Virus record (IMG/VR): IMGVR_UViG_3300049440_000156
Coordinates: 3,705 to 67,704 of that record
DNA length: 64,000 nt
Strand: one strand, 5' to 3'
From: a virus
In this document: positions 55,161 to 56,250 of the stretch, piece by piece
Position numbering within the stretch: position 1 is the first letter of the stretch
How the letters are laid out: every line of letters begins with the position of its first letter
Translations under genes and position numbers: made by a program
Notes under the pieces: generated by a model
Databases searched by the model: none
What the model was told of the DNA's origin: nothing
The model's input: only the letters and a program-made list of their open reading frames with translations

Positions 55161-55194
55161 TTGACAATGTATATACGAAGTATTACTTTGTCAA
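55161..55194. promoter_or_regulatory. Overlapping opposed sigma70 promoters
   Basis: Plus strand TTGACA (55161)-17 nt-TACTTT; minus strand TTGACA (55194-55189)-17 nt-TACATT. Confidence 0.75.
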
Positions 55195-55196
55195 AC

Positions 55197-55385
55197 ATGG
55201 TAAGACAAAAAGAGACACGCAAAAAAAAGACGGCCCGCGGCCTGGCGCTGCGGTTCATTGGCAACGAGGAATCAATGCTGGCCGACCTGAAGCATAAATA
55301 CCCGGAGATGGACGACAGTAAGCTGCTGCGCCAAGCGCTCCGGGAAAAATGGGAGCGCGAGATGGGCAAGAGAGAGAGCAAATAA
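55197..55385 (+). CDS. Ribbon-helix-helix-like regulator (candidate repressor), leaderless
   Basis: LALRF...EE.ML..LK......DSKLLRQALRE; ATG 7 nt after the -10 box. Confidence 0.6.
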   Translation: MVRQKETRKKKTARGLALRFIGNEESMLADLKHKYPEMDDSKLLRQALREKWEREMGKRESK

Positions 55386-55424
55386 TGCTGGCAATTAAAA
55401 AGCGAAGTGGGATACGATTATCCC

Positions 55425-55550
55425 ATGACAAAAACACAACGCGTTCTTTTGTTTGCCCTGGCCGTGGCGTTCACGATTGGAGCATGTCACGAGCTGAGAG
55501 CGGACGGTCCTCACCCACAATGCCTGCCAGGAATCCCCTGTTCAAAATAA
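55425..55550 (+). CDS. 41-aa secreted peptide precursor
   Basis: MTKTQRVLLFALAVAFTIGACHELRA|DGPHPQCLPGIPCSK; hand translated, absent from ORF track. Confidence 0.75.
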   Translation: MTKTQRVLLFALAVAFTIGACHELRADGPHPQCLPGIPCSK

Positions 55551-55566
55551 CTACAGAGAGGGCCAC

Positions 55567-56250
55567 ATGAACGCCCTCTCGTACTTGTTCTGGCTGGTTG
55601 AGGTTCTTCTTGAAGTAGCTGGCGCGCGCCAGGCCCGCAAGCGATCCGCTCCGCTTTCCATATTTCTCAGTTTCCGCGCCTTCGCCGATATCGCATGCCT
55701 GGGGATATCCGCCTTCGCTGGGCCGTTCTTTTATTCGTGGTCCTGGTATGCGCAGGCGCTGATTCAGTACATCCTCTTTACCGTTCTTTCTATGTACGTA
55801 TGCGCTAAACTGCTCCGTTCTGATCGCTACACCTTGCGCTTCTATTCAGCCGCAGCCGGAACACTTTCATTCCTGGCCATAGCCTTCTTCCATGCCAGGC
55901 CATTCACGATGACCAACGTGCTTCACTTTGCCGCCTGCACTTATATGCTGCTGGCTGTGTGCCTATGTCTGGCGCTGGCGATGCAGAAAAACGTTGATTG
56001 GAGCTGGATAGGAATCGCAGCGCTGCTCTTGGCTACATCGAATGGCTTACTGTCGGCCATGCAGGCTGCTCACTGGCAGGTGATGTCTTATTATCCAATC
56101 GGAGAAATTGCGGCGCTAGGGCTTTGGGTATGGGCTACACGGAAGGAGCCGTCCATGAACATCGAAGGCGAGGTACGGCTTTCCCTGCCGGTATGTTTTG
56201 GCGCGGAGAGCGCTACAATGGCAGCAGAGCAGGATAAGTGGATAATGTAA
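55567..56250 (+). CDS. Polytopic (6-7 TM) membrane protein, candidate peptide receptor
   Basis: Hydrophobic throughout with a short soluble C-tail; GAGG RBS; starts 16 nt after the peptide stop. Confidence 0.75.
   Translation: MNALSYLFWLVEVLLEVAGARQARKRSAPLSIFLSFRAFADIACLGISAFAGPFFYSWSWYAQALIQYILFTVLSMYVCAKLLRSDRYTLRFYSAAAGTLSFLAIAFFHARPFTMTNVLHFAACTYMLLAVCLCLALAMQKNVDWSWIGIAALLLATSNGLLSAMQAAHWQVMSYYPIGEIAALGLWVWATRKEPSMNIEGEVRLSLPVCFGAESATMAAEQDKWIM

Follow-up and report, generated by a model that had tools for sequence, protein, structure and literature searches.

A small exported-type peptide gene linked to the gene of a seven-helix membrane protein in soil phages

What function can be assigned to a 41-codon gene whose product has the N-terminus of an exported peptide and which is followed within a few nucleotides by the gene of a polytopic membrane protein without any known family? 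This question is raised by a locus in a 64,000-nt stretch of viral DNA (the window), which corresponds to bases 3705–67704 of the IMG/VR record IMGVR_UViG_3300049440_000156, a virus record of 67,704 bp that is rated 100% complete and has direct terminal repeats (127 bp as measured). In a preliminary description, prepared from the letters of the window alone, the plus-strand unit beside the integrase gene had been read as a peptide-signaling cassette composed of a ribbon-helix-helix (RHH) regulator, a secreted Cys-loop peptide, and a membrane receptor. We followed up this description computationally and find that the peptide gene and the membrane protein gene constitute a conserved, translationally close two-gene module, which is an accessory cassette of temperate soil phages. 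With moderate confidence, we favor a reading in which the exported peptide works with its membrane partner in the cell envelope, following a logic like that of SdpC and SdpI.

The peptide gene and its linkage to the membrane protein gene

The small open reading frame (ORF) lies where the preliminary description had placed it (Table 1), and its product, MTKTQRVLLFALAVAFTIGACHELRADGPHPQCLPGIPCSK, is composed of a basic n-region, a hydrophobic stretch, and a C-terminal part with two cysteines. Residues 1–20 resemble a signal peptide, Cys21 is embedded in a lipobox-like IGAC, and residues D27–C39 form a conserved core (DGPHPQCLPGIPC, encoded at 55503–55541): An alignment of 12 peptides shows no variation at D27, G28, P29, C33, P35, and C39, and the invariant core motif across the family reads DGP-x(1-5)-C-[IL]-P-x(3-4)-C, with prolines in the interval of five or six residues from one cysteine to the other. 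In 246 kb searched in six frames, every occurrence of the pattern DGP.{1,5}C[IL]P.{3,4}C falls within the small ORF that immediately precedes a homologue of the membrane protein gene.

The preliminary description had proposed, as a check, to see whether a small signal-peptide ORF with a DG/GG-x-P-x-C/P motif stands consistently upstream of the homologues of the membrane protein gene, and such an ORF, with the core motif given above, is what we observe in 16 of 16 readable loci: Each contains a small ORF of 37–50 codons that ends 4–23 nt before the homologue, and each encoded peptide combines an export-type N-terminus with the conserved Cys pair. The loci comprise six viral records (the window, L004, L005, L006, L007, and L023) and ten metagenome contigs (L008–L017). 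They are not all independent, as the peptides of L010/L011, L014/L015, and L016/L017 are identical, which leaves 13 distinct peptides; in L013 the small ORF is cut by the contig end. Across the linked loci, the identity of the membrane proteins goes down to about 26–30%. Four of the IMG/VR records were obtained by a pattern scan with P0029, a relative that is 30% identical to the window protein, and a fifth by a scan with a subfamily alignment, while an alignment of four other members led to the ten metagenome contigs. The Logan homologues P0002 (62% identical, on a 63-kb contig), P0007 (66 kb), and P0018 (68 kb) are left out of the count of 16. Pattern scans of viral contigs with the window protein, the alignments A1 and A5, P0007, and P0018 gave no match, nor did a scan of metagenome contigs with A1; scans of genome contigs with A1 and A5 were equally without match, and presence in bacterial chromosomes is neither confirmed nor refuted by them. 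Moreover, no match resulted from tblastn with the membrane protein against deposited phages and plasmids or with the large terminase subunit (TerL) against phages.

Codon changes between close pairs of loci speak for translation of the small ORF: The ratio of synonymous to non-synonymous changes amounts to 12:7 in the peptide frame versus 3:18 and 1:20 in the other frames for L004/L005, to 7:4 versus 0:11 and 2:9 for L008/L009, and to 4:2 in the peptide frame of a third close pair, whereby the other two frames of these three favorable pairs show 0–3 synonymous versus 5–20 non-synonymous changes. The pair L008/L010 is weaker, with 4:5 in the peptide frame versus 1:8 and 1:7 in the others. These ratios indicate that purifying selection acts in the peptide frame only. 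From the linkage, the motif, and the codon changes, all of them features of the sequence, we conclude that the 41-codon ORF is a real gene and belongs with the gene of the seven-helix protein. A search with the peptide in a collection of 5.8 billion protein clusters returned no candidate, not even the peptide itself, which implies that gene callers miss the peptide gene; an ESM Atlas search with the peptide was uninformative (best score 0.78).

It is accordingly very improbable that the two genes are neighbors without a shared function, encoding, for example, an independent small lipoprotein and a transporter or an enzyme. A buried and conserved acidic pair of the membrane protein (E16/D41) could indeed be there for the chemistry of ions or protons and not for binding a peptide; however, an adjacency that persists in every readable locus down to such low identities and across such short gaps, as well as a motif that is never found away from the membrane protein gene, argue against unrelated neighbors.

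The two members of the pair differ in their degree of conservation. In the pairs of loci listed, the peptide core is 46–93% identical where the membrane protein is 26–64% identical; between the window and the other loci the values are 46–73% and 29–40%, and between L013 and L014 they reach 93% and 51%, respectively. A reading as a private signal of each phage would lead one to expect a diversified peptide, and this expectation did not hold: The core is conserved more than the putative receptor. Identities of peptide and membrane protein correlate with a Spearman coefficient of 0.48 over 66 non-independent pairs, a value that says little since linked genes share their history, and the prediction of a complex between the two proteins (score 0.00 versus a mark of 0.32) counts neither way.

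Two side observations concern the evolution of these loci. L013 and L014 encode nearly the same peptide, and an 88-codon ORF behind the membrane protein gene of L014 (1074–1340; also in L015, 806–1072) matches the C-terminal extension of the other allele (P0010, as in L013). From its sequence, this remnant looks like an allele replacement of the membrane protein gene within one phage lineage. In L008–L011 and L017, several successive small genes and the membrane protein gene end with nearly the same residues (...EGTAKGVGE), which suggests a repeated junction element that carries stop codon, ribosome-binding site, and start codon.

Maturation of the peptide and architecture of its partner

How the precursor matures can be judged from the 13 distinct peptides. 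In nine of them a cysteine follows the hydrophobic stretch. The PROSITE lipobox pattern requires A, G, or S at position −1, a rule that six of the 13 peptides fit, including the window peptide with its IGAC; by this lipobox-like sequence, the window peptide may be lipid-tethered. Four of the 13 peptides (L008, L009, L010, and L012) have no cysteine at this place and instead contain an AxA-type small-x-small site, after which the core follows within 2–3 residues. A lipoprotein reading for the whole family was rejected because the peptides of L008–L012 are without cysteine at the lipobox place. Within the family, DGP is preceded by A, F, T, or L, and this variation implies that cleavage directly before DGP is not general as a signal-peptidase site. 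Consequently, the signal peptide followed by a mature 15-mer, as proposed in the preliminary description, stands in part: The export-type N-terminus is there and the core starts at the very aspartate with which the 15-mer was said to begin, whereas the boundary itself is not borne out.

The membrane protein gene begins at the distance from the peptide gene that had been claimed for it, and the multi-helix character of its product is confirmed by an AlphaFold2 model with seven helices (predicted local distance difference test (pLDDT) 90.8, alignment of 48 relatives). Loops 1, 3, and 5 together with the tail contain eight Lys and Arg residues versus one in the other loops, a distribution from which it follows that the N-terminus lies outside and the C-terminal tail in the cytoplasm. 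An exhaustive VIA search with the model ranks bundles like those of G protein-coupled receptors (GPCRs) first: The GPCR-like domain of LYCHOS attains Z 15.2 (root-mean-square deviation 3.3 Å, 193 aa), which is barely above the Z of about 14 that helical models reach by arrangement alone. Further matches are a designed GPCR-like fold (Z 15.0) as well as Smoothened and Frizzled (Z 13.4–13.7). The model thus points to a GPCR-like arrangement, not to homology. Among structure neighbors in the ESM Atlas are a cluster with HisKA_7TM in 12% of its members (template modeling (TM) score 0.61) and a GGDEF cluster (TM score 0.60), so that the modeled fold resembles the seven-helix input modules of histidine kinases and GGDEF proteins. 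The feature neighbors are clusters without a name; the few members with a classification belong mostly to the Acidobacteriota (scores 0.86–0.88, below the 0.9 mark).

In sequence, the protein is equally hard to place. It has no match in Pfam (E ≤ 0.1), PHROG, NCBIfam, or PADLOC; when 48 family members were compared with Pfam-A (E ≤ 0.01), only single weak matches appeared (DUF6962, PMT_4TMC, YhhN, and DUF63, in one member each), and hmmsearch of alignment A2 against the PDB sequences yielded noise (E 0.15). Three close relatives are 51–62% identical, and a full scan of 1.84 billion representatives retrieved 50 relatives at E ≤ 1e-3, almost all of 210–290 aa. With the exception of one repetitive 556-aa match, the relatives comprise 117–313 aa and all stand alone; the ten longest members have no credible domain match, the three sub-threshold matches of P0038 being evidently spurious. 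Across 48 sequences, W9, L15, E16, D41, and L184 hardly vary, and a set of ten adds E12, Y176, and P177. What results is an acidic pair within helices 1 and 2 and, where helix 7 begins on the outer side, a Tyr-Pro. Several identities were rejected on this basis: AgrB/AgrD-like processing by the reversed gene order and the lack of a Pfam match, the rhomboid, CPBP, and site-2 protease readings by the lack of motif and match, and rhodopsin by a helix seven whose sequence is without lysine.

In its gene order, with a polytopic membrane protein of about 220 aa encoded right behind a small exported-type Cys peptide, the pair follows the layout that is common for bacteriocin and immunity genes. One might hence assume a peptide toxin of the bacteriocin or cannibalism type with its immunity protein: The Cys-loop peptide would harm cells that lack the seven-helix protein, whereby lysogens would gain or the prophage would be stabilized. 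No third gene is conserved with the two, which thus form a self-contained pair, and SdpC and SdpI operate in this way (PMC2910880). We nevertheless regard a toxin as quite unlikely: The window proteins and the 48 family members show no bacteriocin, immunity, SdpI, or CPBP/Abi match in Pfam-A, no dedicated exporter is encoded beside the pair, and the mature part of the peptide is very short and proline-rich, without an amphipathic or hydrophobic segment.

The phage and the surroundings of the cassette

The phage is very likely temperate, as follows from its tyrosine integrase together with an attP-like core just beyond the integrase gene that copies the 5' half of a tRNA-Met gene (Table 1). In four soil or rhizosphere DNA runs, this core is covered at a depth of 30–199 as against about 5 in other parts, and numerous loose ends flank it on either side, as is expected if a widespread tRNA gene was the source of an attP core; the stretch therefore probably serves as the attP core when the phage integrates into a tRNA-Met gene. 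The same four runs show no variant letters in the cassette. A diderm soil bacterium is the probable host, which we treat as a lead only.

Table 1. Coordinates of the peptide cassette and of other features of the window
Feature	Position	Strand	Remarks
41-aa exported-type peptide precursor gene	55425..55550	+	ATG, 41 codons; program list starts at GTG 55407
227-aa seven-helix membrane protein gene	55567..56250	+	Starts 16 nt after peptide stop; AlphaFold2
62-aa basic protein	55197..55385	+	Head of plus-strand unit; RHH-like by pattern only
Perfect palindrome TGGGATA-CGAT-TATCCCA	55408..55425		Abuts and overlaps peptide start codon
Integrase/cassette intergenic region	55161..55194		TTGACA box on each strand, facing each other
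Tyrosine integrase	53912..54871	-	Pfam Phage_integrase 9.3e-13; PHROG 1 integrase 3.9e-34; divergent from cassette
attP-like core	53505..53546	+	5' half of tRNA-Met(CAT)-like gene up to anticodon loop; just beyond integrase
Terminase small subunit	58127-58744	-	PHROG
Terminase large subunit, two ORFs	57454-58239 and 56310-57452	-	PHROG; ATPase-like and nuclease-like parts, respectively
Endolysin	31609-32358		PHROG 315

Nearly all long ORFs of the phage are located on the minus strand, the cassette on the opposite one: The plus-strand unit 55197–56250 is flanked by two minus-strand elements, namely the integrase and the terminase genes. A comparable setting recurs in four of the six viral records (the window, G004, G005, and G007), in which the module sits in an integrase-proximal, divergently transcribed operon with the tyrosine integrase gene about 0.6–2.6 kb away from the pair. 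A related phage (TerL 40% identical) is without the pair, which therefore behaves as an accessory module.

Such places are typical of the exclusion genes that temperate phages carry. This setting brings to mind superinfection exclusion or another envelope defense, with the peptide and the seven-helix protein blocking DNA entry or receptor use by competing phages from the inner membrane and the periplasm. A small accessory cassette of membrane and exported proteins, located next to the integrase on the strand opposite to most genes, would suit this role, as would the allele-replacement remnant of L014, the like of which is expected of genes under conflict. On the other hand, there are no PADLOC or PHROG matches for the three window proteins and no PADLOC match for P0029 or the membrane protein of L007, the core is strongly conserved, whereas arms-race genes usually diversify, and known exclusion lipoproteins act without a seven-helix partner. 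Taken together, we consider exclusion unlikely.

The proximity to the integrase also bears on the proposal of the preliminary description, i.e. membrane-sensed communication. According to this proposal, the peptide would be released and would accumulate with the density of lysogens or infections, and the seven-helix protein would sense it from outside and steer lysis versus lysogeny or induction, much like arbitrium with a membrane receptor. A phage-borne, export-type small ORF that is strictly linked to a GPCR-fold protein and, in the four viral records named, lies beside the integrase gene is in line with such a system; small DNA-binding-type genes touch the pair in two loci (the RHH-like ORF of the window and an XRE-family gene in L007), and the four peptides without a lipobox-like cysteine could be free. 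What stands of the proposal is the pair of peptide and membrane partner, well supported by its occurrence in 16 of 16 loci. The role in lysis and lysogeny or between cells does not stand in the same way: The membrane protein has neither an output domain nor a conserved cytoplasmic partner, the core is more conserved than the putative receptor, opposite to what is seen for diversified private signals (L013 and L014 being the clearest case), the lipobox-like IGAC would tether the window peptide to the producing cell, a Sec-exported peptide would stay periplasmic without a further exporter if the host is diderm, which is a lead only, and the pair is also present in records where no integrase was found. 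We therefore judge a released signal improbable. Equally doubtful is its most far-reaching version, in which soil phages, and possibly also their Acidobacteria-like hosts, would have a Sec-exported, disulfide-looped, proline-rich peptide read by a stand-alone GPCR-fold receptor that relays inward via its conserved cytoplasmic tail to small DNA-binding proteins. If this were true, a prophage or an infecting phage could sense the density of kin or lysogens in a diderm host, and the pair would be the first membrane-receptor counterpart of arbitrium.

The RHH gene that the preliminary description had seen upstream of the peptide gene exists as an ORF, but its assignment rests on a pattern and it is not a member of the conserved unit. 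The 62-aa product has no match in Pfam, PHROG, NCBIfam, or PADLOC; a single-sequence model (pLDDT 73.5) comprises helices at residues 13–17, 23–34, and 40–60 and no strand, and Foldseek with this model found no match at E ≤ 0.001. Its ATG is located a few nucleotides after a plus-strand −10-like TACTTT, so that its mRNA may be leaderless. In the adjoining intergenic region, a promoter scan was passed only by the minus-strand TTGACA-17-TACATT (10/12 matches). As a side observation, L007 is the only locus in which a recognizable regulator is coupled to the pair: A gene of the XRE family with a helix-turn-helix (HTH) motif (7614–7919) overlaps the stop codon of the membrane protein gene (PADLOC HTH_VI 7.9e-08; NCBIfam HipB-type 1.4e-09, below cut-off).

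The palindrome in front of the peptide gene is present as it had been described. It belongs, however, to a class of perfect inverted repeats (7-bp arms, loop of 0–6) of which the window contains 15, and is thus by itself not beyond chance. As RNA it would fold into a modest hairpin (−12.1 kcal/mol, z −2.0), in a consensus scan it is terminator-like on the minus strand, and an inverted repeat with arms of at least 6 bp abuts the peptide start in only three of ten distinct loci, the window included. It is a candidate for an RNA hairpin over the AUG, for an operator, or for a minus-strand terminator-like site; the operator is disfavored because the repeat is neither conserved nor beyond chance.

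Two further observations pertain to other genes of the phage. The halves of the large terminase in the window are in different frames and are separated by a stop codon plus 1 nt, and L003 (9220–11086) shows an equal split with an equal 1-nt gap, though the C-terminal part is only 40% identical; rather than an assembly error, this is a conserved split or a programmed shift. A 97-aa ORF (30040–30333, minus strand) with the canonical lipobox LLTGC, located about 1.3 kb downstream of the endolysin gene, could encode a spanin-type or exclusion lipoprotein. For the window peptide itself, an o-spanin or lysis role was rejected: Its mature part is far too short, its partner has seven helices, and the endolysin gene is elsewhere.

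A peptide and its membrane partner among known systems

The strict linkage, the close spacing, the export-type N-terminus, and a seven-helix partner whose N-terminus lies outside together argue that, in the cell that carries the phage, the two products would come into contact on the outer side of the inner membrane. In the mechanism that we favor, the precursor would be exported by Sec and its signal peptide removed at or near residue 20/21; in the window phage, this cleavage would be the work of signal peptidase II, with Cys21 as the lipid-anchored residue, or else of signal peptidase I. In the periplasm, the invariant C-terminal core (DGP...C-x5-C) would be oxidized to a small, proline-stiffened disulfide loop, which would bind to the outward side of the N-out/C-in GPCR-fold protein translated from the same mRNA. 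The pair would act in the envelope of the phage-carrying cell, where the seven-helix protein would be the receptor of the peptide or an immunity-type partner, as in SdpC/SdpI, and it may pass its state inward through the conserved cytoplasmic tail.

A number of results weigh against this mechanism. Maturation is not uniform across the 13 distinct peptides, and on the side of the partner not only is the VIA margin narrow, but Foldseek of the model against the PDB returned no match at E ≤ 0.001. The outer loops of the membrane protein are very short (0–6 residues by DSSP), for which reason any peptide site must be located in the mouth of the bundle. No output domain or fused form was found among the 50 relatives, and a search for longer, fused forms gave none either, which is weak evidence. 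Moreover, no third gene is conserved beside the pair, the neighbors differing in every subfamily; the 62-aa gene is absent from five other phage records searched, four of them pair-bearing, and is hence not part of the conserved pair. Finally, no tyrosine or serine recombinase was found in G003 (90% complete) or G006 (100% complete), both of which bear the pair, so that the pair is not strictly tied to lysogeny; in G003, it lies near the contig start, so the integrase could be off the contig.

A description of such a pair of peptide and seven-helix protein was not found in open-access papers and bioRxiv, supplements not covered. By its sequences, the pair seems to be built from two undescribed families, whose kind can at most be given as an exported peptide with a cognate membrane partner. 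To our knowledge, peptide-based decision systems of phages are known only from phages of Firmicutes, where the receptors are cytoplasmic, and a sensor role of bacterial seven-helix proteins is known only for those that carry a fused output domain. As the pair recurs beside the integrase in uncultured soil phages, it can be put forward as a concrete candidate for a new function at the level of the envelope, be it peptide sensing, self-immunity, or exclusion, and the module is small: It consists of two genes, and a peptide of 15–21 residues can be synthesized.

Among the known systems, arbitrium likewise involves a temperate phage that encodes a small signal-peptide-bearing product close to its lysogeny genes; the arbitrium receptor is a cytoplasmic TPR/RRNPP protein, and the short linear arbitrium peptide is re-imported. 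The window shares with it a phage-encoded small ORF with a signal-peptide-like N-terminus near the integrase gene, but here the neighbor is a seven-helix membrane protein, and the peptide core has two invariant cysteines and is conserved across divergent phages. No TPR/RRNPP receptor was found at the genes adjoining the peptide gene, the rest of the phage not having been scanned for AimR. A second comparison is offered by MgrB, a membrane-anchored or exported peptide of 40–50 aa with periplasmic cysteines that acts on the sensor PhoQ of the same cell. Here, too, a small Cys peptide would act on a membrane protein of the same cell; PhoQ, however, has a kinase output and a large periplasmic domain, the seven-helix protein has neither, and there is no sequence relationship. 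Seven helices and an outside N-terminus are also characteristic of the 7TMR-DISM, HisKA_7TM, and LytS-type (BtsS) proteins, yet those are fused to kinases, cyclases, or other outputs, whereas the family described here stands alone and has no Pfam match. The exclusion proteins Llp of T5, Cor of phi80 and N15, and Ltp of TP-J34 are small, exported, and often lipidated phage proteins encoded on the lysogeny side. They are larger, folded, and act alone, in contrast to a mature part of about 15–30 residues that is always accompanied by a seven-helix protein and has no PHROG match.

A further parallel is provided by the Sdp system of B. subtilis. As described in PMC2910880, an exported peptide acts from outside, and SdpI both confers protection and transmits the signal, in that it keeps a small DNA-binding repressor at the membrane; according to the same paper, the basic SdpI unit has 6 transmembrane segments, and sdpABC, the toxin operon, stands apart from the neighboring sdpRI operon, which is transcribed convergently. 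The window protein differs from SdpI in that it has no Pfam-A SdpI match and is a GPCR-like bundle of seven helices instead of six segments, and the regulator-like gene differs from sdpR in that it is not conserved with the pair, an XRE gene following the pair in L007 only. The likeness to SdpC, SdpI, and SdpR lies in the composition of the unit in the window, in which a small basic ORF, an exported-type Cys peptide, and a polytopic membrane protein are brought together.

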